DNA of 64,000 bases, from positions 40,238,001 through 40,302,000 of the forward strand of contig NC_042998.1 of NCBI RefSeq assembly GCF_006345805.1, read 5' to 3'. Both the position numbers and the translations under genes were made by a program. Of this stretch, positions 947 to 44,721 are shown one piece after another. The first letter of the stretch is position 1; every line of letters begins with the position of its first letter. This DNA is from Octopus sinensis. Taxonomy: Eukaryota. Under the pieces are notes generated by a model. That model made no database searches and was not told where the DNA came from. It saw only the letters and a program-made list of their open reading frames with translations.

Positions 947-1001
947 GTCTCTGACGAAGGGATATTATTATTAATTGATATTCTAGAAACAGCTGTAAGA
1001 C
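947..1001 (+). ncRNA. Minimal type-I hammerhead ribozyme motif
   Basis: GUCU-CUGACGA-[stem II GGGAUAUUA/UGAUAUUCU, first pair A.A]-GAA-ACAGCUGU-A|AGAC. Stem I GUCU/AGAC; GUA cleavage triplet. Confidence 0.7.
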
Positions 1002-1868
1002 CTTCTATATATAAATGCTCTAATATCTACACAGCCTAGGTTTTTTTATCTCATTACGGAAAAAAAAAAAATTCATATCTGTATATATATATAAATAAAA
1101 AAGAGAGAAAAAAAATCAATGTACTATCTACTCCTTACCTGATTTTGGTTTATAAGTTGCGGAAAACATTTTAATGTTATAAGGAAAAAATTTATTTTAG
1201 AAATAGAGATTATTCTTGTTTTTAGTTTTAGTTTGTTTGACAGGTGTTGAAAGTCTCTTTTGACTTGTATCAACTTCTTTCAAATCTTTTGAGTGTAAGC
1301 AATGTGACTTCTGTCATGCAATTTCCATATTCAACATAGTACCCGCATAATAGCACTTTCATGCCACTTTGTTTTCAGTGCCATTGAAGGCAATGGCATT
1401 ATTATCATTCTGTATACACTTCTCAATGATAGCTTGGTTTTCTCAAGCACACTGGCTCGCAATCCTGAAAGACTCAAACCTCTGATCCTTCTGTTGCAGA
1501 ATATGGGCAAACTAGTTTCTCCTCTAACTACTTGATGTTTTTCTCTGCTACCCACTTTCTTTCAGTTTACATAAGCCTGCCTTGTCTTCACTTTTATAGC
1601 CATATCTACATCATTATTACATCACCATCACTCTCCCTTTGGTTGAAACCTTGCACCATAAATGAAAGTAAAGAAAACTAAGTAGAATATAGGGTTTTTT
1701 TCAACATATTTTGAAGCTCATCAGTTAAAAGAAATGAAAATACAATAATGTTTAATGGAATGAGAGTTGACAAAGGCTCTACACCATTAATTACTTTTAA
1801 GTTTATTTCCAAAACATAATATATAAAGATAGGCTTTTAATTTCATTACTCATGCATATATATATATA

Positions 1869-2264
1869 CTAGTAGTATAGCCCGACGTTGCTCAGGTTTG
1901 TTTTCTTTTCGACCCTTTAGAATCGGAATTTTTGAAAAGTAAAAATTTTGCATTATGTAACTTGTTATACTCTTTAAGTGAATATTTTTCTGGCTGAAAT
2001 ACACTGAAAAATGGCGACACAGCAGTAAAAAAATCATAAAAAATAGGGATTTTCATAGAAAAAAAGCACCTTTTTGATGTAAATAATTTTTGGTGTTAAC
2101 ATGGTCCGATTTGAATTTTTTCTTCTATGGAATGAAGAGTAAGCCTTCTTCTATCATACTCTCAATTTTGGTCAACTTGCGCCGCAGGGTCTCGGAGGAG
2201 ATAGTGTTAGTTGAAGGCTACCAAACCTGCCACACACAGACAACTTCAGCTTTATATATAAAGA
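1869..2264 (-). mobile_element. Non-autonomous Helitron
   Basis: The - strand starts TCTTTATATATAAAGC and ends with the hairpin cctgagcaacgtcggg, then CTAG followed by T. Confidence 0.65.
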
Positions 2265-4218
2265 CTGGATGTGTAGTAATTAATGCACTCTAAGCAAAAA
2301 GGAACTCCCAGCTTACTGAATGAATTTCTGTATGCTACTGCAATTACTTAAAATCAAAAATAGCATTAACATAGATTGTTTGAGACTGTGTAAAGGGAAA
2401 TAGCTACCATTAAGTTCACAAGGCACCACCTACCCTGTCATAACAGAAGCAAGGTAAAAGTCTTCAAAGAAGAACTATGTGTGGTGTATGAAAACATCTG
2501 AAAGAATTTCAGAGAAAGTAAGCTACAAAGTTGCCATTAATCCATAAGCTAAAATTGCAGCTTGAAAATCCACCGTATTAAAATTATGAATGTTGCACCC
2601 TGCATTCTAGAAGAATGAGGATACTGAATAAAGTAGTCAAGATGCAATATGGATAAACAACGTACATCACTTTCAAGGAGTGATACTCCTTTTATAAACA
2701 GTTGAAAAATGACAGAGTGGAAAACCACTCTAGAGAGACCTGATAGCTAGATGCATCTATAAGAAGGCTTTGTCAACTTGTTCCTAGAAACAGTGGTTAG
2801 TATCATTAACAACAGTGTTGTCTAGCAGGGGTCAGACAACAATAGTGGCTAAAATTAGAAAAATTTAATTGCATGTCTAAATATTATGTTTAAACGATAA
2901 ACATGCTGTGTGGATGAATTAACAAGGGGATTACAAGGGTTCACTAAACATGCAAGAAATAGTAACCAAATCTTCCTCAAAATATACCCACTAATCCTTA
3001 AAAAAAAAGGACACACTGGTTTGGTTAGTGTAGTTCTAGACTCTTAGTCTTCACATCTATCAAAAAAAAAAAAAAAAGAGAGAGAGAGAGAAAAAGGAGC
3101 ATTATGGATATTGTTGAATCACCTTAATCATAGATCTGATGAAGGTTGACTTTGAAGCCAAACTGGTGTAGAAATTAAAACTTGAGTACTTCTAAGACAC
3201 TATACTAAGCATGGTTACAGTCCATGACAGAAAAAAAAATATGTGCGTGTGTGTTTATGTGAGTGAAGGGAAGATGGTGATGGTTATATAGATAAAATAT
3301 TTCTAATTGTGAAATACTAGTATAGGTATATTGGCTCAACGTTTGGCAGTGCTTCTTTGGCACAGAATTAAGGGATAACGTTCCATATTTGGAATAATTT
3401 GTATGTAAGTGTATGTAGTTGGTTTAAACAAAAATGCATACACACACACACACACATGCACATACACACACATGCACATACACACACACACATGCGGACA
3501 TATGAAATTCATGTGTGTAACAACAGAGTATCTTGTGCTTCTTTACAACAAATCTATTCCCGAGCCAATTATTTGGTGTCAAACAACTTAACTTTGGCTA
3601 ATGATCAATAACGCTTTGTATCAAAAGAACAAGTTGAAGTGAAAATTTACAAATATAGAAACATATTAAGAGGAGAAAATAAGAATAAACATTCATGACT
3701 CAATTAGAGCCAAACCCCGAAAACAAAAATAAAACACGGTAAATAAATGAAATTTTAAATATTTCATATTCAAAACAGGCATTTGTTTGCATCTGCTTGT
3801 CAGTGAACTGCTAAATATACTTTGAAGGAAAGACAGCTTTTAAAAAAGTGGAAGAATATTTACATAATTGAATTTTCAGTGTGTAACTTAAATAGTTCAT
3901 ATGTTAGAAAAAAAAATCAATGAAAACAAACAAAAAAACCCCCCAAAACAATGTGAGAACACCTTTACAGAATTCACAAAACACCACCAGGAGAACAGAA
4001 CTATTTTATTATGTTGGATATTTACTAGATTTCCTCAAAATAATTAACAAAACAGAACATAAACAATGAGCATAGCTATTTTAAAAAGAAAACAAAACAG
4101 CAAAAATTAGAGAAAAGACTTGCTTAAAAAAAAAATCTTTGTCAGATTTGGGTAGAAGATTAGCAATTAACAGAATGCATTTTTTAGTAATATGTTATAA
4201 ATGTAGTACTGATAACCC

Positions 4219-4610
4219 AGTGGAGGCGTAATGGTCCAGTGGTTAGGGCAGTGGATTCGCGGTTGTAGGATCACAGTTTTGATTCCCAGACCAGGCGTTG
4301 TGAGTGTTTATTGAGTGAAAACACTTAAAAGCTCCATGAGGCTCTGGCAGAGGGTGGTGGCAAATCCTGCTGTACTCTTTCAACACAACTTTCTCTCACT
4401 CTTCCTGTTTCTATTGTACCTGTATTTCAAAGGGCCAGCCTTGTCATACTCCATGTCACGCTGAAGCTGAATCTCCCCAAGAACTACGTTAAGGGTGCAC
4501 GTATCTGTGGAGTGCTCAGCCACTTGTGCATTGATTTCATGAACAGGCTGTTCAGTTGATTAGATCAACTGGAACCCTCATCGTCATAACCGATGGAGTG
4601 CCACTAACCA
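4219..4610 (+). mobile_element. tRNA-derived SINE (octopus OK-like) with 11-bp TSD
   Basis: tRNA-like head with A-box (tggtccagtggttagg) and a degenerate B-box. ACTGATAACCC is duplicated at 4208-4218 and 4611-4621. Confidence 0.8.
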
Positions 4611-6731
4611 ACTGATAACCCTATTGAAGGCTTCCAATACTGGTAGGGAGTTAGTTATCCTCTGACTAAAGACCTGACCCAAATACTTGCAACAGAATGG
4701 ACTTCACTAAAGTTACCAAAGATCAAGTTTGGCGGTGTTTAATTGGGCAATAGAATAAATGTATTACATTCATTGAATTTTGCCCAGTATTTTCTTCAAG
4801 ATTATATTCTGTATCAACTAAAGATTAATTGGTGTCTTTTTTTTTTGTTTACATAAAAGAGTAAGATATAACATTTATTGTTCCAAATACTCTGAACACT
4901 CAAGTACTTTAGGCACCTACCAATAAACAAAATTTCCAAATATTGATAGTTAAAACTTTAGTATGACAACATGGTATTACTGGGGTGTTGGGCTCACAAT
5001 CACAATTCCTGAACAAGGCAGTGTGTTATGTCTTTGAAGTAGGCACTTCATTTCATTTTGCTCCAGTCAACTCTGCTGAAAACATATACCAGCCTAGTTA
5101 TGATGCAGCTGTCCCTCATTTGAGTTGCCATGTCTTCGATGTTTCACTGGATCAAAGGTGAGAAGGCTAAGAGAGTGCCTATGTCCACCACCAACAACAT
5201 AGGCACCTAAAGCAATTATTGAAAGTTTGGTACTTCCAATGAAGTTATACTCATTCGTGAATGATGGCTATGGTTTTTATGACAATTGAGTTCTCTCAAG
5301 TTAGCTCTTATCCTCTCCACCCTATCTCTCTCTCTCCCTGTCTCCCCTTTTTTCTTTCTCAGTTACTCATACACATACCCATGGGTACCCTAGCATATGG
5401 AAATATATGATAACCTATGGCTGACTAGCACTCAAGAGTTGTCAATATAGCTTTGTTATGAGATCCAACTAACAGAAGCAGTTAGTGACACAGTGTGTTA
5501 TTTCTGGTTTAAATCTTAACAGCTCAATCAACTTAGTTGTTAAAGTACTGACTAAATTCCAAGAAATTAATGAACGAAGAATTTAATTTACAAACTATAT
5601 AGTATGTCAGTATATTATGGTAGTTGAGATGTCAACTCTACAGATGAAATACTAAATTAAGATTCTCAAAGAACTAACATATTATTTATAGAGACATAAT
5701 TAAGTAAGATTTAGGTTACGCAGGATATTAATCCAAAAGATAGACAGATTCCAGAAAATTTAGGCATTTTTTTGGTGAGGTGAGGTCTGAATCAGGTATA
5801 TTTAGCAAATTATTTACTTTCAAGACAAAAAGTGAGCTTTTGACAATGGACACAGAGCAATGGTGGTGGTGGTAGTGGGGGTTTAATGTTGTTTTCATTC
5901 ATTTATCTAAGGAGGGGGGGGGGGGGGCAGTGTCTGTAATTTTTGTGCAGATGAGTTAGTATGTTAATATTCTATTGGAATTAGTGGCAAATGAAAGCAA
6001 TTTTTAATTTGAATTGCTGCAGGTTAATAATTGTAGAGAAATACAAGAGTTGGATTAGAATTCAAAAGAATTGGAATTGAAGCAGACATTAAGTGTGGTG
6101 GATTTAATCATGGGTGTCCTGCTTATAGAACTTGGTTGAAAAGAGGTGGGTGGGTGGATTCCACAAGCTTTACAGAAGTAACTCTTACCAAGGGACCAGA
6201 AAACCTGGTTGCAAAATAGGAGATGAGAGAGGATATGCTAGCTGTGTGATGCACAAATTTGTCTTGTTTTCCTCATTGTCATCTTACATGCATTGCATAG
6301 GCAAGTGGTTAATTCTTTGGTTGTGAATGGAAATTTCCTCCAGGTGTTGAAGACAATGTTCTTTGACTGCATCATCAATAGTCTTGGCAACAAATAGTGT
6401 AAGCATACATAGGAAGTATGATATTGCATGGTAGAGGGGCATGAAGCATGCATTAGTAAGATAATGGACATTGAATGCAGGAGATCTGAAGAGGCTGAAG
6501 AGAAATGAGGCAAGCATGATCCATTGGATGGATAATTTTAACATGAATTAGATCACAAGTGCCCTGAGAGAGAGACTAGGCGTTATAGATATCAATATAT
6601 GACAGAAAGAGAGACAACTATACAGCCCTCATTACCCATTCATCACATGTATGAACATGTGATGTGAATGGGTGATGAGTGTTGGACAAAAAAGTACAGT
6701 GGAGAAAAATGTTCAGGAGATATTCATAGGG

Positions 6732-7022
6732 GCTGACCAAAGCCTTGCGAGTGGATTTGGTAGACGGAAAATGAAAGAAGCCCGTCGAATATATATATAT
6801 ATATGTATGTGTGTGTATGTGTTTGTGTATCTGTGTTTGTCACCCCAACATTGCTTGACAACCGATGCTGGTGTGTTTATGTCCTTGAAACTTAGCGGTT
6901 TGGCAAAAGAGACCGATAGAATAAGTACTAGTCTTACAAAGAATAAGTCCTGGGGTCGATTTGCTCGACTAAAGGCAGTGCTCCAGCATGGCCACAGTCA
7001 AATGACTGAAACAAGTAAAAGT
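6732..7022 (+). mobile_element. Major tRNA-SINE family, 5'-truncated copy
   Basis: Closely matches the copies at 24807-25190 and 38897-39323 (gaccaaagccttg...gactgaaacaagtaaaa), with an internal TA/TG microsatellite. Confidence 0.8.
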
Positions 7023-7914
7023 GTAGGAAAGGAAGGAGTGATGAAGTCAGATCTCAGGAAGCTGGACTTCACATATGTGATGACAAAAGACCAAAATGAG
7101 TGGCAATATTACTTGGGTACTGTGTTGAGAGAGACACTGAGAGGCACCAAAGTAGCTGTGTGTTTTTGTGTGTGAGAGAGAGACAGAGTATGTGATGAAT
7201 GTCTAATCAGGACTAATCAGGAGTGGGAGTGGAAGTTAGCAGCGTAGTGGGGGTAATGCTAGCTGGTAAGTGAGCAATGAAAGTCAATAAAGGAATGATG
7301 GTAGGGGGAAGAGGAGATGGAAGGAATGTTGATTAGCAGTACATTGGGGTAAAAAGACAGAGTGTAATAGGTATCAGAAGAATCTGATGCAATCTTTTTT
7401 TACTGAAGCACTGTGATATTAGGAAGAGAACCGTGAAATATGTGGTGGCAGAGGGAGCATTGAATATGGACAAATCTGTTTGCTCTTACACACACACATG
7501 TATAATACACATATGCATGCCTATAAAAAGAGGTAAATGAGTCTCCATTTGTTTTTGGCAATGAGTATTTCAGTTGTTCAACCAAGTGAATTACTTGCTT
7601 CTATTAGTGTGTAAGTGGCTGAGTATATCAAAAACACAGGCAAATTAGTGTGACATGGTTTGTGACAAGACTAACCCTTTGAATCACAGGTACATCTGAA
7701 GCCACCTGATGGGCTTCCATACAATTTTACTCTATCCAGTGTTATTCATTTACAAGAAGCCACTCCACTCCTTAGCTTCATCTGAGTCCACCTTGCCCAC
7801 AGTGCAGGCTTTAGTACTGATTATAGGCTTCACTTAATGACTAGTGGGCAATAATCCATGCTCCATTAAACCCATTAGAGTCATATGCTCAATATTAGAT
7901 TACTCCTCAAAGCT

Positions 7915-8018
7915 TTGTGTATGTGTACAAGTGCACGTGTGTACATGTATGCATGTAAGTACATATATGTATACATATATGTATATTTATATATTTTATA
8001 TATATGCATGAGTGTATG

Positions 8019-8062
<44 letters not shown>

Positions 8063-8130
8063 ATATATATATATATATATGCATGAGTGTATGTATGTAT
8101 GTGTATAAATATATATATATATATGTATAG
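7915..8130. repeat. Compound (TA)n/(TGTA)n microsatellite
   Basis: Directly visible. Confidence 0.9.
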
Positions 8131-19012: not shown

Positions 19013-19057
<45 letters not shown>

Positions 19058-21766: not shown

Positions 21767-22030
21767 GTATATGTCTATATATACATATACATACATATAT
21801 ATATGTAATGAATATGAGGGGTTTAGTTCACTGATGATCTAAACCAATAGGTACGCTGTGTAAGTGGTCATCCATTAGGTTCCAAGTTCACAGCTAAAAT
21901 AAGAGCTAGGGATCTGTAGTAGGCTATTGAGTCAGCAGGTATATATCAAAGAAAAGGAAAACAGAACCAAGGCAGGACAAGCATCTCAAGTCATTTGGAA
22001 TATTTAATTAGAATAAGGGTGAGTCAAAAA

Positions 22031-22294
22031 AGAAGTAGAAGTAATGTCTTACAGCTGTTTCTGGGAAAGTCCCAGACAGAGCATTTACAATGAATAGAAG
22101 AAACCGCCATACTCTCTAGAACAAGATGAACTGTGAATTTTATTCTCCTATCTACTGTTCCATTCTTCTGTCTGCTGTAAATTCTCCATCTGGAGCTTTC
22201 TTGCATACACACCTTGTCTCTGATGATGGAATACCCAGTGTATGGGGGTGTTGAGAGATCCCAGAAACAGCTGTAAGACATTACTTCTACTTCT
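22031..22294. mobile_element. Hammerhead-bearing fold-back element (Penelope-like pLTR remnant)
   Basis: Perfect 36-bp inverted arms at 22031-22066 and 22259-22294, overlapping the hammerhead at 22215-22280. A (TA)n tract lies at about 21720-21805. Confidence 0.65.
22215..22280 (+). ncRNA. Type-I hammerhead ribozyme motif, canonical core
   Basis: UGUCU-CUGAUGA-UGG...CCA-GAA-ACAGCUGU-A|AGACA. Stem I is 5 bp, stem III is palindromic, triplet GUA; predicted cut at 22275/22276. Confidence 0.8.
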
Positions 22295-22371
22295 CTTTTT
22301 TTGATCCACCTTTAATCAAATATTCTAAATGACCTGAGATGTTTGTCCCACCTTGGTTTTGTTTTCCTTTT

Positions 22372-23181
22372 TCTTTTAATGTGCCCTGAGAAAAGTTGGA
22401 CATAAGAAGCATCAGATATGGTGTGCAAGAGAGACGACTGCACTGGGATCGTCATGTGATGCGTATGGATGGGGATGGCTGTGTAAAGAAGTGTCACACT
22501 CTAACAGTGGAGGGAACTGTGAAAGTGGTAGACTCAGGAAGACAATAGCAGAGGTAGACCCAGAAAGGCATGGTGAAGCACGACCTTCGAACGTTGGACT
22601 TCACAAAGGCAATGACAAACGACCAAGATCTTTGGAGATATGTTGTACTTGAGAAGACCTGGCAAGCCAAGTGAGATTGTAGTTATGGCTGATGTCAGTG
22701 TTGCATAACTGGCCTGTTTAAAAGCACCCTTCAATCGTTGGCTGATATGCCATGATTGTGAAGACCTGTTGAACCAAGTGAAATTGTAATTGAGGCTGAT
22801 GCCATGTAAAAACCAGCATTTGAGAGTAGCCAATGCTAGTGCTGCCTGACTAGCATCCATGCTGGTGGCACATAAAAAGCACCATTTGAGTGTAGCCAAT
22901 GCCAGTGCTGCCTGACTGGCATCCATGCTGGTGGCACATAAAAAGCACCATTTGAGTGTAGCCAATGCCAGTGCTGCCTGACTGGCATCCACGCTGGTGG
23001 CATGTAAAAAGCACCCACTACACTCTTGGAGTGGTTGGCATTAGGAAAGGCATCCAGCTGTAGAAACCTTGCCAAATTGGATTGGAGCCTGATACAGCCT
23101 TCTGGCCTGCCAGTGCTCAGTCAAACCTTCCAATTGATGCCAGCATGGAAAACAGACGTTAAATGACGATGATGATGATGG
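22372..23181 (+). mobile_element. RTE-clade LINE 3' fragment with a 66-bp x3 tandem repeat in the 3' UTR
   Basis: Degraded translation ..KLDIRSIRYGVQERRLHWDRHVMRMDGDGCVKKC..VEG resembles the RTE ORF C-terminus (RRLRWFGHV.RM). 66-bp units at about 22826-23010; (GAT)n tail. Confidence 0.8.
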
Positions 23182-26200: not shown

Positions 26201-27656
26201 ATATATAGACACAAGTATAGCTGATTAGTAAGGGGTTTGCTCCCCAATCACATGGTTTCAGGTTCTGCTCCACTGCATGGCACCATGAGCAAGTGTTTCT
26301 ACTATAACACTGGCCTGACCAAAGCTTTGTGAATAGATTTGCTAAATGGAGACTGAAAGAAGCCCATTGTATGTATGTATGTATAGATCATCATCATTAT
26401 CATCATCACCATCATCATCCTCTAATGTCTGTTTTTCCATGATGATGTGGGAAGAACAGTTTGACCAGTTGGCAAGCTGCACTAGGTTCCAGTCTGCTTT
26501 AGCATGGTTTCTACAGTTGGATGCCTTTTCTAATGCCAACCACTCTACAGTGTGCGCTGGGTGCTTTTAATGTGCCACCAACATGAGTGCCTGTATGTGG
26601 TACTGGCACAAGTGATTATAATGTGACATAATTTTACTGGCATACTTATATGTGTATGTGTGTGTGTGTGTGTGCATATGCTACTGTCTTCTTGCTTTCA
26701 ATCTTCTGTGAAAACTTTATCTGGTTATGGGGAAATATTAGCTTACTTGATAACAGGTGATGATTGGCATAAAGTAAGGGCATCCAGCCACAGAAACTCT
26801 AGCTCAAGAAAATTTCATCCAACACAAGCAATCATAGAAAAGCGGACATTTAAACGATGATGATGATGATGATGATGATGATACTTAAAAGAAAAGAAAA
26901 ATGCAGAAGATGAATGAAGAATAAAAGTGTGTGTGTGGGAGGTTAAGTAATACGGGTTAAGGAAAGTGAAACTATTTTCTTTGAAAATATTTTAGATAAC
27001 TAGGAACAAGTGCAAATCAACTTATGATGAAGAATGTAAAATCAGTGAAAATATGAGAAAATTTTAATACTTATAAGATATTAAGATTTGAATTTGTAGA
27101 AGGATTAGCAATTTGAGGTTGAAGCACAAGATAAAGATAATAAAAATGATAAAAGTTTGACTATGTTAACAGTATAGAATTACAAGACATCCCACATGAT
27201 GATTTTGAGCATCTTTAGAAAGTTTTTTATTATGAAGGTATAAAACAGTTGTAGGTATATAAAGTCTGAAAAAAAGGTGGGCGATGATCAGGGGTTTACT
27301 CAAATGGCAGATGGAGAACTAAATAACAACAGTGGAAATGAATTCTTATGGTTAAAGTGATTTTTTTTTCTAAACCATGTGAAAACTCTTAATGTTCATC
27401 GTTTCTAATGGATTGATTTGATGTGTGTGTATGTGTGTGTGTGTGTGTGTGTGTGTAGCTAAAGGATTCATTAGAATCTAGGCATGTCAACATGGAAGAC
27501 ACCTGAAATGGCTTGGTACAATAACATAGGGTTCACAGTGAAGTAAAATAATCATGAAGGTATCATGTGTTAGTAGCGAACTGTAGATATGTAAGTACCA
27601 AATCCAATTTAAACTGGATCTAACTCAGGACTGGTTCTTGGTGAGGTACAGGCATA

Positions 27657-27934
27657 AAAGAAAACACAAATGGGGTTCAAAGTTTATGACAGCTGTTTTG
27701 GTAGAATTTTATTGATGTATTCATTGATTACATTATAGCATGTAATCTACCATCTTCAGGTAAAATTTTAAACAGGTATAAACAGGTGAGATGATACCTT
27801 GATGACAAATCCAACTAACATATTGGATACAAAATTTTATCTGAAGACGGTGGATTGTATGCTATAAAGTAATCAATTAATAAAATTCTATTGAAACAGC
27901 TGTTGTAAATTTTAAACTCCGTTTGTGTACTTTT
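27657..27934. mobile_element. Hammerhead-bearing fold-back element with one ribozyme motif per arm
   Basis: Diverged inverted arms of about 105-110 bp (about 27657-27769 and 27831-27934). The + arm reads CUGAAGA...GAAACAGCUGUU; the - arm reads CUGAAGA...AAAACAGCUGUC. Confidence 0.7.
27836..27909 (+). ncRNA. Type-I hammerhead ribozyme motif (decayed stems)
   Basis: UUUAU-CUGAAGA-C-GGUGGA...UCUAUU-GAA-ACAGCUGU-U|GUAAA. Confidence 0.65.
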
Positions 27935-30900
27935 ATATATATATGTAAATAAAGAGAATAAGGCCTAGTTTAGACGAAATATCATCATGTAAACAATATT
28001 CTAATACTTTAGATTTTCTAAATTTTACTATAGGGCCATACATTTTACTACACAATTATAGAGTCCCTACGGTGTCTCTCAACCTGCTAGAAATAATAAA
28101 CACATTCTTTCAAATCAGACCATAGCATCTTAAAAAGAACGGACTCATTAGGTAATGTTATAAAACAATTCGGGTTGTCATATCTAAAACGACTTTAATT
28201 ACTACGACTTTCTTCAGAGGTTTACTCAATGAAGATTGACAAAATATACCAGGCCCGGGTATAAGTGAAATCACCACCCTACACACAATTTATTAATGAG
28301 AAGACAAAACAGAGAGCATCTATATACTTCTTTCTTCACCATAGTTATGAACCAAGTTTAAAAAGTTTGAAACCATGTCTTTATTAAACATGGTAATTTG
28401 TCCGACCTCTTGTTCATTCCTCAGACTCCCCCTACCCTTATGAGAAAACCCTGGTCTAAATAAACAACATAAAACAATCAATGCTTAACTTTTTAACGAT
28501 ACACTTGACAATTTTTCGGCAATACAGTATCGATTAGTCTTTATTATAATTCCCTAATGAGTTTCCATCATATTCATGTATCTACTGTATATATAAATAT
28601 CGAAGGTAGAAAAACTATTTAGAAAAAATCGCCTTGTTTTTATGTTTTAAACCATATAATCAATCATTCCCATACTTCGCAAATAAATTTTGATTTAAAA
28701 CCACTTGGGAGGAAATTTGCAGAAAAATGCAAATTTACTGCTTACATAGAATGAAAATAAATAAATACTTTCAAAACAAGTTCCATCACATTATTATTCC
28801 TTGAAAAGTGTAACAGTGTTAACATTTAAAAGGAAGGCTTAAGAAATATATAGATAGTTGGAAATTTTCTTTTTTTTTTTTTCTTCTTAAATGCACTGTT
28901 AGCCTAGAAACTCCTGATCCCTATTCTTCAATGGGTATACAAACGTGTCCAAACTCGTATAAACTTCACTATTATAAGATTTGCCGATGCAGACCACCAT
29001 CAGTTTTCATCAAACTCTCACTCTCTTTAAGTATAATAGATATAGTCTTGAATATATAGAATAGAAAGAAACAAAATTCCATCAGCAATTGAAAACAGAG
29101 TGGATACACGTATATGTGTATATAAGTGTGTGCGTGCTAATGACTTTTGGTTTATGCATGCATTAATAAATTCTGATATCCATCCTAAATATAAACATTC
29201 ACTACCGCCCTTCAAATGTTGACCCACTGTTAGTCTGCATCAATGGCTTTGACAGGGTAAATTGACAGCTATGCAACCTCACCTTTCCCACTTAAAGTAC
29301 TCTCATACTCCACGTTATATCTCTCACAAGCACTAAGCACACCCAGTTATCAAGTTCCCCAGGGTAGAAGGGCCTAGAAAAGCCAAGGGCAACATCATCT
29401 CTCCAGACTGCAAAAGGACACATTTTTATCTTATCTTTTAAGCCATTTGCAAGCTTAGTCCGCATAACTTTAAGTGGTCGAAATCCACTTCTTTGTTCGG
29501 GTAGGATGCAAGTTCGGCTATTGCAAGTTTGTTTTCTTGCTTTGATGGCATTTTAAACAGAAGCCAGGGAATTATTAAACAGCTGTACCAAACATCTAAA
29601 CAGTTTTATAGTTCTACTATATTACAAACGGTCCCCTTGACACATATTTAATTAACCCTAGAGGTGTGAAAACTAAATCTATATAGTCGAGAATTAAAAC
29701 AGCAGTCTGAGTAAGACAACACTAGTGTTTTCTCGTTGACTTGGGTTTCCAAGTCGAAGTAAACGGCGTGTAGAATGTTCATGGGTTGAGAAAGTCTCAC
29801 ATGCATTAAAAATACAAATGTACTTGTATCTTGTATTATAGTGTCAAAAGAGGAATCGAAATCGAGTGACGGGCACGATTAGCGGAAAATTCATCAACTG
29901 CCAAAGGTGTTCGCCATATTAGTGTGTTTAATATTTAAAGAGGAAACTACTTAAACGGTTACATCCATTTACAGATGCCAGCAGAAAGTTTACAACGTTG
30001 AAATCGTTATCTCACCGGTGTGCTTACGCTAGATACGTGCACTATAGGCAGCTTAATTAGAAAGTCGACATAGGCCGTTATAAAAGCAAACTTGCAAGCT
30101 ATTATTCTAGTACGCAACCAATGGATTACGAATAGATTACTATGATTATACGATAGAAGCCAGTTTCTTGGCTTTTGTTTTAGATATTAGCCCAAATCCG
30201 ATGTAAATGAAAATAAACATACATATCGTGTATTTTATCGAAGAATAATCTTAAGTAACACGTGCATTTGTATGGCTAAAACGTGTGTATTCATAAATTG
30301 GTCAAGAAATTAAATATACGTTTGTCCGAATAAAAGCATAGTTTTGAGAAATATAATCTTAAATTCATTCATTTTTTTTTTCATCTCTCAGAAAATATTT
30401 ATTCAGATTCTGAAGTCTTACGCACTTTCTTTACTACCAAAATAATTCATCTTACAACATTCGAGACTAATTTACCTGTATCGAAATAAGTAAGCTGCTA
30501 ATAGTTTATTTCATATTGATCAATGTTAATATATATTGAAAATACCAGTGAGAATCAGATAGTTTTCTTTGTTTTAATTACGTTCATACTACGCTTTTGT
30601 TAGTATTTTTATTTATTTATTTTTGTTTGCAACTTACATAATTGGTACTTAAACATCGTTGCTTGTCAAAAGCTTTGTTCAAATGATGCCATTCACATAA
30701 CAGTATTTCAGGTTGTTTCAAACAAATCAGAATCTGTCGATTACAATAGATGTAGAAATACTATAAACTTTGTGAAATTAACTGGTACAGTGCATCGCGA
30801 TCTCTTTCGCTTCTACACACACGCATTATGTATATACAATCGAGATAACAGGTGAGATATTACATACAGAGAATTGATAATCAATTCATTTGACAATTCA

Positions 30901-31093
30901 GAAAGGTTGACTCTAATGCGTGGGAATCTGTGTTGACATTAGGAACAGGACAAGCTATTTCTCTATAAAAGTAATTATAGTGATAGAAAAATTGACATTA
31001 TTTGTTTTATCGATTTACTTCTTTTTCTTAGGTAAACAGAATAAGTTAACTGTTGCATTTACAACAACAATAATAATAATGTTTCTAACTTAC

Positions 31094-31601
31094 CATCATT
31101 AGAAGCTTTTGTATGGGTTAAACGCAAAACATCCTTATGCGTCCAACCGGCTTTGGATTTATAACGTGTTGCATTCTCAGCTAGCTGCTTGGGATCCTTG
31201 GAATTGTACCAGGAACTAATGGTCTTTCTCTGAAGTTTACCCCATCCTTTAGAAGGGTTGTTTAAAGTCTGAGAAAAGGCTATAAATGTGAATAAGTCGG
31301 TCGGTAAAGTACAAACCTCAGCCAAAGCCTTGTAGGCATCTCGCTTTGCTATTTTATCAGAACTCCGTGTACAGAGGGCCAGACAAAAAAGCAATGGGGT
31401 TTTACGAATCGATTTACCTTCTTTGGTATATGCAAGTACCTCTTTGACAACTTCTTTACCTTTCCCATCTTCAATCAGTTTTGAAATAGTTGGAGCGCTT
31501 TCTTTTTTGAGGATTTGTTCTCCAAATTCATATAAAGGCCCTTCAGTTCCAATAGACAAGAAACGATTTAGTTTCCACAGGTCATCCGCTTCTATACTCA
31601 T
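31094..31601 (-). CDS. RO60: RO60 (60-kDa SS-A/Ro ribonucleoprotein, TROVE domain), first coding exon
   Basis: LNRFLSIGTEG, PLLFCLALC, EVCTLPTDLFTFI, GWGKLQRKTISSWY and RYKSKAGWTHKDVLRLTH match the Ro60 N-terminal HEAT region. The exon ends at GATG|gtaag (phase 1) after ..KASND. An in-frame TAA lies 10 codons upstream of the ATG. Confidence 0.93.
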
Positions 31602-31749
31602 TATTCCTTTCTTTTCAGAACCCTTATTTTAAAACACTGAATTCAGAAAAGGTTTTCTATGTCTAATAATTTTAACAAGCCATCCAGCAACCAGGCTAGC
31701 ACTGCCAAACAAAAGCTGATGTGAAACGAGTATTATTTAACAATAAAAG

Positions 31750-33302: not shown

Positions 33303-33512
33303 GGTACTACTTAAGAAGAGTGGTCCCGGTGCGCGCACTTGCATATTCGCGCATCCGCACTAACTAGTCGTGACTAGTCAATCCTACAACGGCTACCTGG
33401 CAAAGTAAATAAAACACGAGAACACAAAGTAAGGATCGACTAGTCACAACTAGCTAGCGCGGATGCACGAGTACTCGAGTACGCGCACCGGGACCACTCT
33501 TCTTAAGTAGTA

Positions 33513-33514
<2 letters not shown>
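33303..33514. mobile_element. 212-bp fold-back MITE inserted in (TA)n
   Basis: 33-bp perfect TIR GGTACTACTTAAGAAGAGTGGTCCCGGTGCGCG, extending imperfectly to about 80 bp; flanks are ata|GG...CC|ata. Confidence 0.8.
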
Positions 33515-33547
<33 letters not shown>

Positions 33548-33548
<1 letters not shown>

Positions 33549-33773
33549 CACCGGAGTAAACACATAAATGTGAAATAAGGTGGAAAAAAGAGTACTCAAA
33601 TACCAGTGATAGAGTAATATGCTTTATTTAAAGCAGCAGAAAATTCAACAAAACCTGTTACTCTGAGTTTCCCGTTGCCGTTCATCGGACAGTTTTTGCT
33701 AGAATGTCCGATGAACGGCAACGGGAAACTCAGAGTAACAGGTTTTGTTGAATTTTCTGCTGCTTTAAATAAA

Positions 33774-33774
<1 letters not shown>
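33548..33774. mobile_element. Hammerhead-bearing fold-back element between two (TA)n tracts
   Basis: Perfect 70-bp inverted arms at 33622-33691 and 33705-33774 with a 13-nt spacer. Each arm carries CCGAUGA-ACGGCAACGG-GAAACUCAGAGUA. Confidence 0.75.
33648..33699 (-). ncRNA. Hammerhead-like motif, U4C core variant
   Basis: GCAAAAACUGU-CCGAUGA-ACG(GCAA)CGG-GAA-ACUCAGAGU-A|ACAGGUUUUGU. Stem I has 10 of 11 positions paired. Confidence 0.6.
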
Positions 33775-33813
<39 letters not shown>

Positions 33814-33818
<5 letters not shown>

Positions 33819-36751: not shown

Positions 36752-36904
36752 CAAGGGCGGACCCAAAGGGTGGGGGTGGAGCTTGACGGGCACGTTGCCC
36801 CCTCAAGAAAAGAAGTGCGCCCTTCTAAATAATGTTATTATGCTCCTCTCTCCTGGAATTGTATTCCTTTCTCTCCCTTCGAATAATTCCTAGGACCGTG
36901 CCTG
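36752..36904. mobile_element. Small hAT-like MITE remnant
   Basis: Imperfect terminal inverted repeats caagggcggaccca / cctaggaccgtgcctg. Confidence 0.35.
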
Positions 36905-38896
36905 CTTTTAATGCTTTTTCTTTTTTTTTTCTTCCTGTAAAAATATGTAGCTAAATGAAATTTATGAATTTAAAAAAAGAAAAAGAAAAAAAATCGGTGC
37001 TTTAAATTTAAGCAGTTAAATACTAACATCATAGAATTTGCTTTCCTCTCTCGAGAATCAATAAAATTAATATGAGATACATACAGTCGGTTTCAAGCAA
37101 GTGTTTTCCCACTATTTATTAATCGAATTATCATTTCTTACAAATTTTCCTGTCTTTTCTTCTCTTCATCTTCCTAATTTTGTCTCCTCCGTCTTTTTAA
37201 GTGTACAAGCATAATTTATCTACCATCTCAAGGATATCTTCGTTTGATTTACATTGAATAAATTCTTTTAATGCGGTTTAAGTTGTAGCTAACTAGAACA
37301 GCTTCAAATTTAGGATTTAGTTTCGTTAAGAGTTCTCTACCCTGCTACTTTGAAACTTACATGGAAAGTATTACTCATCTAAAATATTTTATACTCTTTT
37401 ACTTGTTTCAGTCATTTGACTGCAACCATGCTGGAGCACTGCCTTTAGTCGAAGAAATCTACTCCCAGGACTTATTCTTTGATATTGCAGCACAAATCTT
37501 TTCTAGTAAAATAATTAAATAATTTTAAAATTTAATCAAAATATCGCATGCAAACAAATCTACTCCGCTAGGATACAGTTTTCTAAATATTTCATTGCAT
37601 GGCCACAACTTTAAGGCTGAAACGTAAAAGAATAAAAGAATGTGTATGTGATTGTGTGTGTGGTGTGTGTACATTCATGCTTACATACATACTTATGTAT
37701 GTATGTATGTGTGTGTGTGTGTGTGTGTCTCGAAGACGACGCATGAGTGTTCAACATTTTGCCGAACAATCTGCACAAATGATTTGTTTATAGTAATCAA
37801 ATGTTTGAGCTGCACATTAGCTCGCTCTCCACATCAAATTGATGTTGTCTGAACAGGTGCACTGTGTACAACACGTCAGGTGTCGAAATGATTACAGAGC
37901 AAAGTGAGATGAAATGTTTTTACTCAAGAATACAACATATTACGCAGTCTAGGAATTGAAACCATGATCTCGCGATTGTGAGTCCAACATCTCAACCACT
38001 AGGCCATATATATATATGTGTGTGTGTGTGTACTCACTGAACTGTTGGTGTAACTATGATGTTCTGGTGATCTAATAAGCAAGCTATCTTTATTTGCATT
38101 GAGTTGTGAATACACAATTTTATTGTATAATACATTGCTTGCATATTAATGCAAACATGTAAACATAATTTTATTCCCCACTGAAATTATTACTACATGA
38201 AGGTTACAAAATAGCCTTAATCATAAAGATGTCAGCTAGTTGTGGTTAACTAAATATATTCATCTCTCATAACTCCAATGGTTTATATACGCCTTGTGAA
38301 GTAATTTAACTGATTGGATCTTTTAGATTTCAACTGCATTACATTTCTCTGTATTGGATTATTAGGTAATCTGATAGCCAAGTCCGGCATAACTCACTGC
38401 AGAGAGTTATTTTCTGCATAATTATTTCTGGCATTTTAGCGCGCCAGAACGAGAACTTTTGAAAAATAACCCCAAGTGTAATTAGTAGAACTGTATACAT
38501 GTCCAATCTCATGCGGACATCCCGTGTATAGTTCTTCAAATTATATTTACAATGACAATCATGCTGAGGAGTTACGGACGAATTACGTAAGTGAAATTGT
38601 GTAAATGTTGATAGTGAAACATGCCCATGATTAATCTATATTTTTGTTATTTCTTATTTGTCATGCTCGATTACATTCTGACGTTTGCTGAATTTTCTTG
38701 AGAACATTTCTTAGTGGTAAGACCATAGCGGATCTACTTCTAGCATAAGGGTTGTCCACGTTGTGGTCATCCCTCTTATATCTATGTAATATAATTCTCT
38801 GCAGCTTCAGATTTGTATATGCTATACCACTGGTTTTAAATTGATATTAATCAAATTAATATTCAATTTTTCACCGTCATTTTAAAATTTTAATTT

Positions 38897-39081
38897 AGGC
38901 GCAGGAGTGGCTGTGTGGTAAGTATCTTGCTTACCAACCACGTTGTTCCGGGTTCAGTCCCACTGCGTGGCACCTTGGGCAAGTGTCTCCTACTATAGTC
39001 TTGGGCCAACCAAAGCCTTGTGAGCGGATTTGGTAGACGGAAACTGAAAGAAGCCCGCCGTGTATATATATATATATATAT

Positions 39082-39129
<48 letters not shown>

Positions 39130-39322
39130 TTATGTTTGTCCCCCCAACATCGCTTGACAACCGATGGTGGTGTGTTTACGCCCCCGTAACTTAGCAGTTC
39201 GGCAAAAGAGACCGATAGAATAAGTACTAGGCTTACAAAGAATAAGTCCTGGGGTCGATTTGCTCGACTAAAGGTGGTGCTCCAGCATGGCCACAGTCAA
39301 ATGACTGAAACAAGTAAAAGAG

Positions 39323-39323
<1 letters not shown>
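38897..39323 (+). mobile_element. Major tRNA-SINE family, full length
   Basis: Same sequence as 24807-25190, with an expanded internal (TA)n. Confidence 0.85.
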
Positions 39324-39353
<30 letters not shown>

Positions 39354-39475
39354 GACATTTATATAAATGTGTGTATGTATGTATATAATATATATTTGTA
39401 TGTATATATATATATCATCATCATCATCGTTTAGCGTCCGTTTTCCATGCTAGCACGGGTTGGACGGTATATTTG

Positions 39476-39524
<49 letters not shown>

Positions 39525-41129
39525 ATAATATAAATAATATATAAATATATGCATATATACATACATATATGTACGTACCTACATCTATATGTATATATAC
39601 ATGCATATATGGGTACAGGACATAAAAAAAAAAACGTTGAACACAATGAGAAACGAAAACATAAAAACAAAAACATGGAAACGTACTATTTTTCAAACAA
39701 TAACAGGATTCTTTCAGTTTCCATCAACTAAATCCACTCGCAAAACTTTGATGAGCCCAAATACAAAACACTTGCCCAAATTCCTACATAGTAGGATTGA
39801 TCTCAGAACCGTTTAGTTGGGAAGCAAACTTCTCAACCACACAGACATGCCTTTACACACACACACACACACATACTCAAAACTTTTCCCAGTTGATTCA
39901 ATTCAGCTTGTTTATCTCACTTATGATATTAATGCACTTACAAAAGTTAAAAAGAGTTGCAGTTTGTCGTTCTCTTTGATAGTCACATACGCCATACTTA
40001 TAAGGGAAAACATATTTTTAAAACTATTAGGTTGATTGATTCACTTGCAAGATCAAAGTAAATCAATCTCCAATAACACAATTTGAAATGAAAACAAAAA
40101 TAAAATCATAGCAGACGACGTACGCGCGAGTGAGAGAGGAAGTGAGAGAAAGAGAAAGAGAGGGAGGGAGAGACATGGTCCAACAAACACTTTCTGTTAA
40201 TAAACTGTTTAAAGTTACTTCCCTTGATAACTGTTTTTCTAAAGAAATATTTATTCTCAGTACATCGGTCACATTACACAATCTTTCTTTTGTTGATCAC
40301 TCTGACCTTTGTATTCTGTAGGTCCTTCTTGTTTCATAGGGTGTGTATTTAGGCGCAGTTATTAGGGATAGCAACACTATCAGTATTACATGTGTGTGTG
40401 TGTGTGTGTTTCTTTTTGTTTCTCTGGAATTAGGTGGAAAGGGTAGCGTATTTAAGGTGGTTTTTAATGTAGATGAGTACAGATGCGTAAGGGTAATTTC
40501 AAATGAAGTGATAGGGACTGTGTTTTCTGCATCAATGATTTGTACTCTTTGACTGTCCAAGTCGTCTTTCATTTTAAGTATTTTTAATTTATCACGAGGG
40601 AGATAGTGGCTAGGGTAAGCGTACGACTTGCGACGTGGAAAGAGTGTAGCCTAGACAGGGCTACGATGATGAATCTAATATATTGTCTGTACATTATAGC
40701 CCACCACATACAGTACCAATAAATCTTTTATGTCGTGTAGGCATGCTTTCGAAACTTGCTTCCCAACCATGTGGTCTTGGGTTCAGTCCTATTGCACAGC
40801 ACCTTGAGTGTCTTCTACTTATAATCTGGTCAAACTAAAGCGTTTGACCCGGTCATAAAAACAACAAAAAAAAAAAAGCGTAATAGGTGTAAAACAACTT
40901 CCTCTAAACGAATATGACAAAAACATGCGCGCTCGCGAAGGGGGTGGGGTGGGGGAGAAGCCTCGGGAAAAATAAAAGATACAATTTCCTGAAATAGCTT
41001 TATATAAATATATCTGTATGATGGCCTTCATCTTGCACATCTTTCAATGTAAGTAGCAACTATGTCGTATTTTTTTAAATATATTCCAGCAAAGATGGGT
41101 GGGTTGGTGGTGGTGGCATTCAGCCATTA

Positions 41130-41545
41130 GTGGCAGCCGTGGCTATGTGGTAAGAACCTTGCTTCCAAACCACATGGTTCCAGGAAAGTGTCTTCTACTA
41201 TCGCTTTGGGCTGACCAAAACCTTGTGAGTGGATTTGGTGGACAGAAACTGAAAGAAGCCTGTCATATATATATATATATATAATATATATATATATAAT
41301 ATATATATGTATATATTTATGTGTGTGTCTGTGTTTGTCCCCCCCTCCCCGGTGCTTCACAACTGATGTTGGTGTGTTTATGTCCCCGTTACTTAAATGG
41401 GGACATAAACGGGTGCAGTTCGGCAAAAGTGACCGACAGAATAAGTACGAAGCTTACAAAGAATAAGTCTTGGGGTCGATTTTTTCGACTAAAAGGTGGT
41501 GTCCCAGCATGGCCACAGTCAAATGACATAAACAAGAAAAAGAGA
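41130..41545 (+). mobile_element. Major tRNA-SINE family, diverged copy
   Basis: Homologous to 38897-39323. Confidence 0.75.
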
Positions 41546-42242
41546 AAAAAATAAAAGAGAAAAGAAAATAAAGGGGAAAAGAGAAAGAAAATTCACAGCA
41601 ACAATGCTCTTCTCAGTATGTGTGATGTCCCTGTTAAGGCACTCTTTTGCACTTCCTGCATGGATGGTAAGCCAGGGATCATTCTTAAATAATTTTCCGT
41701 TATCATTATCATTGAGTGAGAGAGCAGCACATGCTACCAAAATGACACTGGGAAACCATTACCAATGTACCCATCATGACTACCCATCTGATAAGGGTAC
41801 ACCAGACACATACATCACAACCACGTGTGTAACATGGTGATCTTATATCAAGATAAACAGTGCATGACCTTGCAGGTGGAGCCCAGTTAGAATTTTCTTC
41901 AGGTCGAGTTGCCCATCCTGCTCAAAAGGTTTAAGGATGATGAATGAAACACCCATGTTTTCAGAGGTGAATTATTCAAACCCCAAAGAATTCCTTGCAA
42001 CACATGGCCATGATGTTCCCCCATTACTTCTGCTCATGATCAGAGATGCACATATCATCAGCCACTAAGGGACATGCTCAACTGGTTATGGTCAAACAAC
42101 TGACAAGCAAATCTCTGGTATTGAGCAGAATATTTACTGTAGCCCATCTTTTATACCAAGACAAAACAATGTACATGATAACACTTCCAATAAGTTAAGA
42201 TCAAAAGCCATGAGAGTCACTGCCTGGTATTGCATCAGGGCA

Positions 42243-42273
42243 GTTATTGTTGTTGTTGTTGTTGTTATTGTTA

Positions 42274-42308
<35 letters not shown>

Positions 42309-42320
42309 ATTATTATTATT
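42243..42320. repeat. (TTG)n/(TTA)n trinucleotide microsatellite
   Basis: Directly visible. Confidence 0.9.
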
Positions 42321-43059
42321 AAGGTTGCAAGCTGGCAGAACCAATGACACGTTAGACAAAATACTTTGTTGCATTTTGTCCATCTTTACATTCTGAAATC
42401 AAATTCTGCCAACATTGACATTGCCTTGCATCCTTTTGAGCTGATAAAATAAGTACCAGTAAAGCACTGGGCTTGATGTAATTGACTTCCTCTCCCCTCA
42501 AAAATTGCTGGCCCTGTACCAAAATTTGCAACTATTATTATTATTAAGAGTATGGATAGTAGAATTAATATCCTGTTAGACTAATGCATTGTACATGTTA
42601 TGATCATATGCTGGTGTGAATTGTTCTACAATATGAATTGGAAGTAGCTCGAGGTTTATAAACTAAATTGAACACACATACAGGTGTGTGTATTGTTAGT
42701 TTGTGAGTCAGCTGCGTTTTATGTTCTCTTGTGCCTAAAATGTATGTATGTTTGATTTTATTTTCTTTAAGGCTTTTTTAAGTTTGTGAAGTTTACCAAG
42801 CTTTGAAATATTATTCTTCAAGTGATTTTTGAAATCTTTTATTTTTCTGAGATTTGAGATTTCTTTAAAAAAAATCTAAAATCTTTTCACCTTTTCTTGT
42901 CTTGCCTGTAACTGCTTTTAGCTTCCTTTAATTTATTCAGTTACAATATTTCATCTACCTTCTTTACCTTCATAACCTCTCTTACTAACGGTGTTACCCT
43001 TTTGTCTTAATATACTTTATGTTCCGAGTTTAACTCATACTGTAACTAGTTTTACATTT

Positions 43060-43680
43060 CCTGTGCTTGAGAAGACTTGGCAAGCCAAGTGAGACCATAA
43101 CCCTTGGCCTATGCCAGTGGTGTAACCAGCCCACTTATGCATACCTTTCCTTCATTGGATACTAAACTCTGCTTGTGAAGACCTGTTGAGGCAAGTGAAA
43201 CCGAAATCAAATTCGATGACAGCACTGCATAATTGGCATCCGTGCAAGTGAAGCGCTAAGAGCACCATCCGAGTGTGATCGTTGCCAGGGCTGCTGACTG
43301 ACTTCTGTGCTGGTGGCATGTAAAGAGCACCATTTGAGCATGATTGTTACCAGCGTCACCCTACTGGCACTTGTGCCGGTGGCATGTGAAAAACAACATT
43401 CGAGCGAGGTCGTTGCCAGTGCTGCTGAACTGGCTCCTGTGCAGGTGGCACATAAAAAACACCATTTAAGCATGGCTGTTGCCAGTACCACCTGACTGCT
43501 GGTGGCACGTAAAAGTGCCCACTACACTCTCAGAGTGCTTGGCGTTAGGAAGGCCATCCAGCCGTAGAAACTCTACCAGATCAGAATGGAACCTGGTGCA
43601 GCCATCTGGCTCACCAGTCCTCAGTCAAACCGTCCAACCCATGCCAGATGGGAAAGCGGACGTTAAACGATGATGATGAT
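43060..43680 (+). mobile_element. RTE LINE 3' fragment with tandem ggtggca..aaaagcacc repeats
   Basis: Homologous to 22640-23181; (GAT)n tail. Confidence 0.75.
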
Positions 43681-43744
43681 CCTTTTGGAGTCAATAAAGT
43701 ACCAGTAAAATATACCTAGTCAATGTGGTTGACCCCCCCTTACC

Positions 43745-43952
43745 TTAACCCTTTAGCATTTAAACTGACCATAACTGGACAAAATATTCTCCCTTGTTTT
43801 ATGTTAAAACTGGTCAGATCAAGCTTCTCACACCTGCTGTATAACATTGTTTTAAAAATAAACAACTATATCATCAAAATCTCAAAGCTACAAGAGAATG
43901 TGAATAAATAAACCTTACATTTGACAGAGTAGTCAGAATTCTAAATGGTTAG
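43745..43952. mobile_element. piggyBac-like MITE remnant
   Basis: TTAA|CCCTTTAGCATT left end and degenerate aattctaaatggttag right end. Confidence 0.4.
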
Positions 43953-43959
43953 AGTTCAG

Positions 43960-44260
43960 CTGTGTTGCTCATACATTTTCCTTACTATATTAATGATTTA
44001 CTTGCTGTCACTCCTAATGATGCTCAATCTTATGCAGATGCTACCAATTTTCACTTTTCCCTAACCTTCTGCACACAGGCATGATTCACAGACCACCTTT
44101 ACATCTAACATCAAACCTGCACTTCCTCCATGAACAGAGGCTTACCACTGGGAACATAATCTTGTCTACTTCAGCAGCACAAAGATATTATCATTACGTG
44201 TATAAAAGAAACAATCTTGTACCTCACCCTCTTAGTCATACTCAAGAACAACATGCAATT
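43960..44260 (+). mobile_element. Old LINE RT remnant
   Basis: Degraded ..YINDL....SYADAT (YINDL..YADDT-like) RT core motif. Confidence 0.45.
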
Positions 44261-44367
44261 TAAACCCTCAAAGTCGTAACAAATACCACACCTCACAATT
44301 ATTGATGATTTCACATATATATATATATATATATAACAATTGCACACCTCACAATTATTGATGATTT

Positions 44368-44420
<53 letters not shown>

Positions 44421-44422
<2 letters not shown>

Positions 44423-44721
44423 CAATTGCAGCGTGGAAGGTGTTTATAAGCCATTTAAGAAACACACAAAATCCGTTAGATTTACTTCAACATTTAAATT
44501 TAATTTGTCAAAATATTTTCGTCGCTTTCAGACCGCGACCTGTTCACTGACAAAGCTTCGTGCTGCATCTGAGATGCAACAAATTAAATTTAAATGTTGA
44601 AGTGAATCTAACGGTTTTGTGTGTTTCTTGAATGGCTTATAAACACCTTCCATGCTGCAATTGTTTTTGTTCCAGCACACGATCTCAGATCAAGTCACTT
44701 GCTATGCAAGTACATCTCCAT
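44421..44721. mobile_element. Hammerhead-bearing fold-back element between (TA)n tracts
   Basis: Inverted arms of about 88 bp at 44421-44508 and 44579-44665 with few mismatches. The spacer holds most of a hammerhead variant on the - strand. Confidence 0.75.
44504..44554 (-). ncRNA. Hammerhead motif, G3:C8 compensatory variant
   Basis: UUUGUCA-GUGAACA-G-GUCGC(GGUCUGAAA)GCGAC-GAA-AAUAUU-U|UGACAAA. Stem I 7 bp, stem II 5 bp, palindromic stem III. Confidence 0.7.

Follow-up and report, generated by a model that had tools for sequence, protein, structure and literature searches.

The five short non-coding loci examined here lie in a window of 64,000 nucleotides of the Octopus sinensis genome (NCBI RefSeq assembly GCF_006345805.1, contig NC_042998.1, positions 40,238,001 to 40,302,000 of the forward strand), which is the whole stretch that was analysed. 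The five loci are very probably 5'-truncated pseudo-long terminal repeat (pLTR) ends of five families of Penelope-like elements (PLEs). Each locus belongs to a different high-copy family, named F1 (0.95 kb) to F5 (44.4 kb) in window order. Parentage is graded: open reading frames (ORFs) tie F4 and F5 to PLEs, F1 and F2 are linked through endonuclease remnants only, and for F3 we infer it. When two ends of F4 or F5 stand head to head, one arm nearly always ends in a short 3' end and the other in a longer tail.

Hammerhead loci and their families

A type-I descriptor (stem I of at least 3 bp, N3-Y-G-A-N-N8-A with 3-8 pairing, stem II, GAAA, palindromic stem III and NUH) found six hammerhead motifs in the window, none of them outside the five loci (Table 1). 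Thirty dinucleotide shuffles of the window gave a mean of 0.77 matches (maximum 3), and a stricter descriptor found 4 motifs as compared with a shuffle mean of 0.13 (maximum 1). The minimal type-I hammerheads that an earlier note had read from the letters of the window are thus borne out. An Rfam search of the window returned no hammerhead match at E<=1. The inverted repeats described at four loci are real at loci 2–5, with 3' ends facing outwards, but only locus 4 keeps both ribozyme motifs intact, the second arm being damaged at the other three. The loci themselves stand where they had been placed, but the real bounds are wider at loci 1–3. The window holds no RT (reverse transcriptase) or GIY-YIG ORF for the elements, as had been stated: six PLE queries gave no PLE-protein match at E<0.01. 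No additional copy of the F1–F5 families was found in the window beyond the five loci.

Copies were sought in 2.72 Gb of genome. First-look candidates numbered 2426 (F1), 498 (F2), 720 (F3), 857 (F4) and 5387 (F5), with 40 scored per family; exact 28-mers of F4 and F5 occurred 3,956 and 4,570 times, and their reversed controls 0 times. F1 and F2 have the ribozyme in common and differ in downstream sequence. All families have two fixed 3' ends, either a short end or a tail further on, the tails measuring ~55-60 nt in F5, ~70 nt in F4, ~120 nt in F2 and ~200 nt in F3; F1 is tailed in some copies.

Counts for F4 and F5 come, unless stated otherwise, from position-picked samples, namely the first 100 pattern matches on contig C1 for each family, in which 100 F4 and 99 F5 arms were measured. 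The 3' ends adjoined (TA)3 in 86 of the 100 F4 arms and 44 of the 99 F5 arms versus 2.2% of random window positions, so the microsatellite association noted before holds true at family level. Target-site duplications of 9-14 bp were found at copies. They were counted for F5, where a flank duplication of at least 8 bp was present at 14/19 fold-backs outside (TA)n versus 7/342 cross-pair controls; these 19 are a subset of 46 tailed fold-backs from all F5 loci, with one locus counted twice. F4 and F5 arms also adjoin each other in three places (L016, L137, L358).

Parent elements

On sequence grounds, the element that ends in F4 is a young PLE of the Hydra clade whose ORFs are intact, an assignment made because of its protein motifs together with a lead from the Atlas, where the neighbours of the protein are PLE-like clusters at 0.98-0.99. 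Two loci (L166, L167) are pLTR-ORF-pLTR units of F4 with a spacing of 3.44 kb, and a third (L443) has the full PLE layout of inverted pLTR, pLTR, 727-codon frame and pLTR. Long frames of 727-766 codons with F4 pLTRs on either side were present in 6/6 fetched long-ORF copies, an F4 pLTR lies ~1.0-1.1 kb downstream in 29 of the 30 best endonuclease matches, and 3 of 30 tail-picked copies read on beyond the tail. The parent protein has RT motifs, RWK, DKT, CxCX5C, CxxC and CxH, and no CCHH. RWK, CxxC and CxH were found in 6/6 copies, a DKT-type motif in 6/6 (exact in 5) and CxCX5C in 17/35.

F5 is, by the same kind of evidence, the end of an RT + GIY-YIG PLE. Two copies (L318, L319) read upstream through a 1-kb untranslated region (UTR) into a frame with a YVDD RT motif and a GIY-YIG domain that scores above the Pfam cut-off. 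This parent is a candidate Nematis-like element by motif spacing, its N-terminal half lying outside the recovered sequence. For F1 (L437, L438), Hydra-type endonuclease remnants lie ~1.1 kb upstream on the same strand, and for F2 (L236, L439, L440) such remnants also lie upstream on the same strand; their linker or CxH pattern is the same as in the F4 parent. F3 has the PLE-end layout.

Extending copies outwards, as the earlier note had proposed, reached linked RT + GIY-YIG frames for F5 and RT-motif ORFs for F4, and the PLE origin it had suggested is upheld for these two by RT + endonuclease parents and for F1 and F2 by endonuclease remnants. What it read as conservation of structure rather than sequence between the loci reflects five different parent families and not one diverging element.

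Other candidate parents were rejected. Hydra-type C-terminal fragments lie within ~130 nt of F3 tails, downstream of them, in L237 and L434; they are only ~30% alike and are probably unrelated neighbours, an arrangement that suggests PLEs inserting beside PLE ends. A 4-kb tandem on C1 with F5 fold-backs and fragments of long interspersed nuclear elements (LINEs) (L316-L317, G000:C1:72549000-72568800) is a duplicated genomic block without a PLE ORF. The PLE families recovered by the GIY-YIG search carry other hammerheads, and none is a parent of F1–F5. One of these families (L147, L148, L157, L161, L163, L170, L171, L182) has RT + GIY-YIG ORFs of 780-883 codons, downstream of which lies a U3-A8 hammerhead (UUGAUAA, palindrome ACAUGU), and L172, L176 and L181 represent more PLE families with other hammerhead cores.

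One tail per head-to-head pair

Exactly one arm was tailed in 47/47 head-to-head pairs of F4 and 34/35 of F5. Among solo arms, 13/29 (F4) and 31/43 (F5) were tailed. Pairs with two tails turned up only among similarity-picked copies (L005, L084) and flanking some long elements. The inner junctions of the pairs were mostly distinct (35 among 48 F4 pairs and 31 among 34 F5 pairs, counts that predate the stricter de-duplication used for the tails), and many showed short palindromes and overlaps. Because the inner junctions vary, the fold-back is not a fixed unit. The non-autonomous families proposed earlier are likewise not needed, since the same ends also occur as solo arms and on long elements.

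The two arms of a pair resemble each other more than arms of different copies do. Mirrored variants numbered 39 in F4 against a mean of 15.5 in cross-copy pairings (maximum 26.1 of 500) and 98 in F5 against 34.7 (maximum 61.1), and a separate comparison of copies gave a like result. Three subfamily markers were concordant between arms in 32/33, 20/20 and 15/15 typed pairs, where 0.59, 0.50 and 0.56 would be expected. Taken together, the single tail and the subfamily variants common to both arms favour double priming, in which both target strands are primed on one RNA; we regard this as the probable origin of the pairs, with some reserve.

The second arm might instead arise by snap-back self-priming or antisense-template priming (PMC3846280, in part), and the endonuclease would then resolve the product at the tail boundary. 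Such a course would account for one tail per pair and for the mirrored variants, agrees with the palindromes and overlaps at the junctions, and has a precedent in the available part of Craig et al. (PMC8557442), where the tail is ascribed to endonuclease-mediated resolution. In its simple form it requires that the tailed arm be the one extending furthest 5'. The tail-less arm was the longer in 17 F4 pairs versus 10 (20 similar) and in 18 F5 pairs versus 6 (10 similar), that is, in 35/51 unequal pairs (p 0.011), an excess that simple snap-back from a tailed complementary DNA (cDNA) cannot produce. The short end, moreover, also terminates solo arms and long elements. We consider snap-back or antisense-template priming rather unlikely.

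5' ends away from the ribozyme cut

Only 3/100 F4 arms and 0/99 F5 arms had their 5' end within 2 nt of the ribozyme cut. The ends piled up instead at -50 to -36 in F4 (40/100) and at -60 to -51 in F5 (36/99, an underestimate), ~10-20 nt upstream of the ribozyme; further peaks at -43 and -16 were artefacts of a reference from another subfamily. A clustering of 5' ends at the cut, seen in similarity-picked copies, was overturned by these counts. Of the F5 arms whose 5' end falls on the AG hot spot, 15/17 (21/29 over all loci) carry a G in place of the C of the parent. In L1 insertions an extra 5' G has been taken as a copied cap (PMC11702581, in part). A splice source of the F5 extra G was looked for, and no donor preceded by GAG was found within 3.4 kb upstream in L319 or L318. 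The distribution of 5' ends argues that the copied RNA is not defined by ribozyme cleavage in the clades of the two families.

The same pile-up could be produced by miniature PLEs, solo pLTR copies whose 5' end lies at the transcription start and which retain an internal promoter, act as masters and borrow the parent protein; many copies would then be descended from solos and not from long elements. The narrow 5' window in which 36/99 F5 and 40/100 F4 arms start fits this proposal, as does the internal promoter of D. virilis Penelope, which overlaps an intron (PMC2377424, in part), and C4-core arms make up 41/79 of F4 overall versus 1/29 of the best endonuclease-linked copies, a set biased by the query. 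Long copies of either F5 loop variant and of the F4 C4 variant are known, however (L089, L318, L167), transcription from a long element's upstream pLTR would yield the same short product, and no solo-specific lineage was shown. We judge masters of this kind fairly improbable.

The loci had also been called retrozyme-like. Non-LTR retrozymes, which would replicate through circular RNA released by ribozyme cleavage, have type-I hammerheads with palindromic stem III and are considered to derive from PLE pLTRs, and they are defined by tandem units (bioRxiv 10.64898/2026.07.22.740005). No tandem ribozyme monomers are present at the five loci, and copies are solo or head to head. Within a fold-back the two ribozymes are encoded on opposite strands, which precludes a dimer within one transcript. 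The 5' ends avoid the cut site, copy ends match the pLTR ends of ORF-bearing elements, and the one 4-kb tandem examined turned out to be a duplicated block of the genome. The term is therefore not supported, and a retrozyme origin appears very unlikely. Miniature inverted-repeat transposable elements (MITEs), DNA transposons whose long terminal inverted repeats resemble hammerheads by chance, would share the inverted arms, target duplications and TA targets, but the variable junctions, one-sided tails, solo arms and contiguity with RT/endonuclease ORFs, with no transposase link seen, refute them for F4 and F5 and leave them scarcely credible overall.

Ribozyme cores and folding

Judged by their letters, the features of a minimal type-I hammerhead (core, stems I and II, palindromic stem III and NUH) are present. 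The F5 core is GUGAACA in 54/65 arms and the G3-C8 pair is present in 60/65. A C3G/G8C double change gives partial rescue of the anole ribozyme (PMC11167929). C4 cores were found in 41/79 F4 arms and at least 19/37 F1 arms, so that U4C, a departure from the type-I core which reduces activity in vitro (PMC3088659, in part), is carried by many copies of both families. In a plain tally of covariation within families, loop 2 of F5 differs between subfamilies and the stem is kept. A consensus fold by sequence across the unrelated families was tried and discarded as meaningless.

The cost of forcing the hammerhead fold in read-through RNA was 6.7, 40.6, 71.5, 73.2 and 1.8 kcal/mol at loci 1–5, and stem III self-dimers were calculated at -11.1 (F1–F3), -7.4 (F4) and -0.2 kcal/mol (F5). 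Since the two arms of a fold-back pair with each other in read-through RNA, these structures are predicted to be largely inactive as ribozymes.

Features of the window

Table 1 Loci F1–F5, as assigned here, and neighbouring features in the 64,000-nt window
Feature	Position	Strand	Element bounds	Description
F1, solo 5'-truncated pLTR end, no tail	930..1074	+	about 930-1074	Hammerhead 947-1001: stem I GUCU/AGAC, core CUGACGA, palindrome ACAGCUGU, triplet GUA
F2 left arm, inverted pLTR end	21815..22066 (left bound approximate)	-	about 21815-22380	Cut within stem II; ~120-nt 3' tail
F2 right arm, tail-less	22101..22380	+		Hammerhead 22215-22280 (CUGAUGA, ACAGCUGU, GUA)
F3 left arm	27460..27824 (left bound approximate)	-	about 27460-27935	Decayed hammerhead (GAAA mutated); ~200-nt 3' tail adjoins (TG)n
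F3 right arm, tail-less	27831..27935	+		Hammerhead 27836-27909 (CUGAAGA, ACAGCUGU)
F4 left arm, pLTR assigned to a Hydra-clade PLE	33548..33706	-	about 33548-33774	~70-nt tail; hammerhead 33655-33692: CCGAUGA, 2-bp stem II with GCAA loop, ACUCAGAGU, GUA
F4 right arm, tail-less	33705..33774	+		Hammerhead 33705-33740
F5 left arm, tail-less, extends to 5' hot spot	44421..44574	-	about 44421-44721	Hammerhead 44504-44554: G3-C8 core (GUGAACA), G10.1-C11.1, palindrome AAUAUU, UUU triplet
F5 right arm	44571..44721	+		Ribozyme core deleted; ~55-60-nt 3' tail
Second fold-back, directly left of F4	33303-33514			83-nt arms, 88% complementary, GC-rich, within (TA)n
Flank duplication beside F5	~44287-44420			~45-50 bp of flank plus (TA)n duplicated; first 9-10 nt of F5 outer end between the copies
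Open frame with TROVE domain	31062-31628	-		E 1.4e-13
Mariner-type transposon	52859-54152			46-nt inverted ends, 297-codon transposase frame
Frame beside locus 1	386-964	-		Resembles, in its motifs, the C-terminal portion of a LINE reverse transcriptase; no Pfam match

The second fold-back beside F4 has no hammerhead by the descriptor and is either MITE-like or another PLE end. The duplication beside the F5 insertion looks like aborted priming. The TROVE frame is probably an exon of a host gene, and some of the loci may therefore be intronic.

Comparison with known systems

Inverted pLTRs, one-sided tails and target-site duplications have been described before (PMC3846280, PMC8557442 and PMC8969392, each in part). 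The copies described here share with the canonical PLE unit (PMC3846280 and PMC8557442, in part) the head-to-head pLTRs, a tail at one end, 9-14 bp duplications and solo pLTRs. They differ in that there is mostly no ORF between the arms and in that the tail, optional in that unit, is on exactly one arm in 81/82 pairs.

The F4 parent resembles the Hydra-clade PLEs in the available part of PMC8557442 in its single ORF with a C-terminal endonuclease, the same motif set, no CCHH and (TA)n targets. Like that of Hydra-2_aMil, the F4 hammerhead lies within the pLTR and has CUGU/ACAG as stem I and ACUC-N-GAGU as stem III. Hydra-1_Obim is a different family from F4, since its listed hammerhead and its N-terminus differ when compared by eye. 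As compared with the clade in that source, F4 has a unit of 3.35-3.44 kb, a 1-kb 3' UTR and a tail of ~70 nt instead of 30-40, the C4 core is found in about half of its arms, and its second linker cysteine is replaced in about half of the copies. The F5 parent shares with Nematis and Neptune PLEs the C-terminal GIY-YIG, the CX3CxxC linker and CCHH-type residues, and its short linker spacing is that of the Nematis rows of fig. S2 of Craig et al. (PMC8557442, in part), a likeness by motifs.

The minimal PLE hammerheads of Cervera and de la Pena 2014 (PMC4209133) match those described here in the extra nucleotide after A9, palindromic stem III, 3-8 covariation, many families per genome and dual opposite-strand motifs 100-700 bp apart, and match F5 in G10.1-C11.1. 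They have U3-A8 where F5 has G3-C8 with a UUU triplet, and F1 and F4 differ from them in often having C4 and an unpaired 10.1-11.1 position. For the Anolis element PAc (Poseidon; Frangieh et al. 2024, PMC11167929), internal initiation was demonstrated in vitro: two internal RT start sites define the tail, targets are AT-rich, both strands are cut and extended, as proposed here, a dimer is predicted, and uncut RNA dominates as template. In contrast to PAc, the F4 ORF starts downstream of the tail and not in stem II, and the mutually exclusive use of two sites in genomic pairs is unreported in PMC11167929.

For cephalopods, a giant squid paper counted 235 Rfam hammerheads (PMC6962438, in part), and an O. 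vulgaris repeat annotation has 31 recently active PLE families, with no mention of hammerheads in its available part (PMC13282606). In a literature search, with Lunse 2017, Repbase and Dfam outside it, neither the one-tail rule nor a natural G3-C8 core was stated in any paper found.

Proposed mechanism

We propose that the transcript would start inside the pLTR, ~10-20 nt upstream of the ribozyme, or read in from upstream; the internal start is suggested by the 5'-end pile-up and by the F5 extra G, which resembles a copied cap. The PLE protein would nick the two strands of a (TA)n or AT-rich target ~9-14 nt apart, as the target duplications suggest. Reverse transcription would then begin at two internal sites 55-200 nt apart, consistent with the two fixed 3' ends. 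In fold-backs the two strands would use different sites, one near and one far, probably on a single RNA, and small overlaps would serve to join their cDNAs head to head. The template would mostly be uncut by the ribozyme, to judge from the 5' ends. Hairpins would likely be made afresh at each insertion, with both nicked strands of the AT-rich target priming. In its strict form, a protein dimer would prime both strands on one capped, uncut RNA, always with near and far sites and one tail, and the G3-C8 core would have spread to thousands of copies without cleavage setting their ends; we put this forward tentatively, as somewhat short of an even case.

Several observations weigh against the parentage, double priming and the uncut template. 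The position-picked samples were drawn from the first 80-85 Mb of one contig. The second linker cysteine of F4 is replaced in 18/35 copies, and pieces of the F4 ORF gave no Pfam match and likewise nothing in a PDB search. No RT was linked to F1 or F2, whose degenerate endonuclease pieces were found at 2 places among 37 F1 loci and 3 among 19 F2 loci, and no F3 parent ORF was found in 38 copies examined. One-sided variants exceed mirrored ones (124 vs 39 in F4, 165 vs 98 in F5), and conversion between arms after insertion could have added mirrored variants. F4 has no excess of extra G (G before AG in 2/23 non-inverted, non-parent arms), and the 5' hot spots of both families look like 3' splice sites as well. 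Forcing the hammerhead costs little at loci 1 and 5, so ribozymes there could still fold. The anole element in vitro shows no strand difference in start site (PMC11167929).

Significance

The elements are ordinary PLE debris, new families of a kind already known. What goes beyond the known picture is the one-tail rule, the subfamily variants shared between arms, the 5' ends away from the cut and the natural G3-C8 core. The result is useful for annotation, as such elements go unrecognised by Rfam and would be taken for MITEs or short interspersed nuclear elements (SINEs). The counts are relevant to two questions that are open in the field according to the available part of PMC8557442, namely the origin of the inverted pLTR with its tail and the role of the hammerhead. 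For the in vitro PLE system already available, the one-tail rule yields a sharp prediction, and the map of 5' ends argues in two further clades that the copied RNA is not set by cleavage. With its intact ORFs, the young Hydra family offers a candidate on which biochemical work on the Hydra clade could begin.

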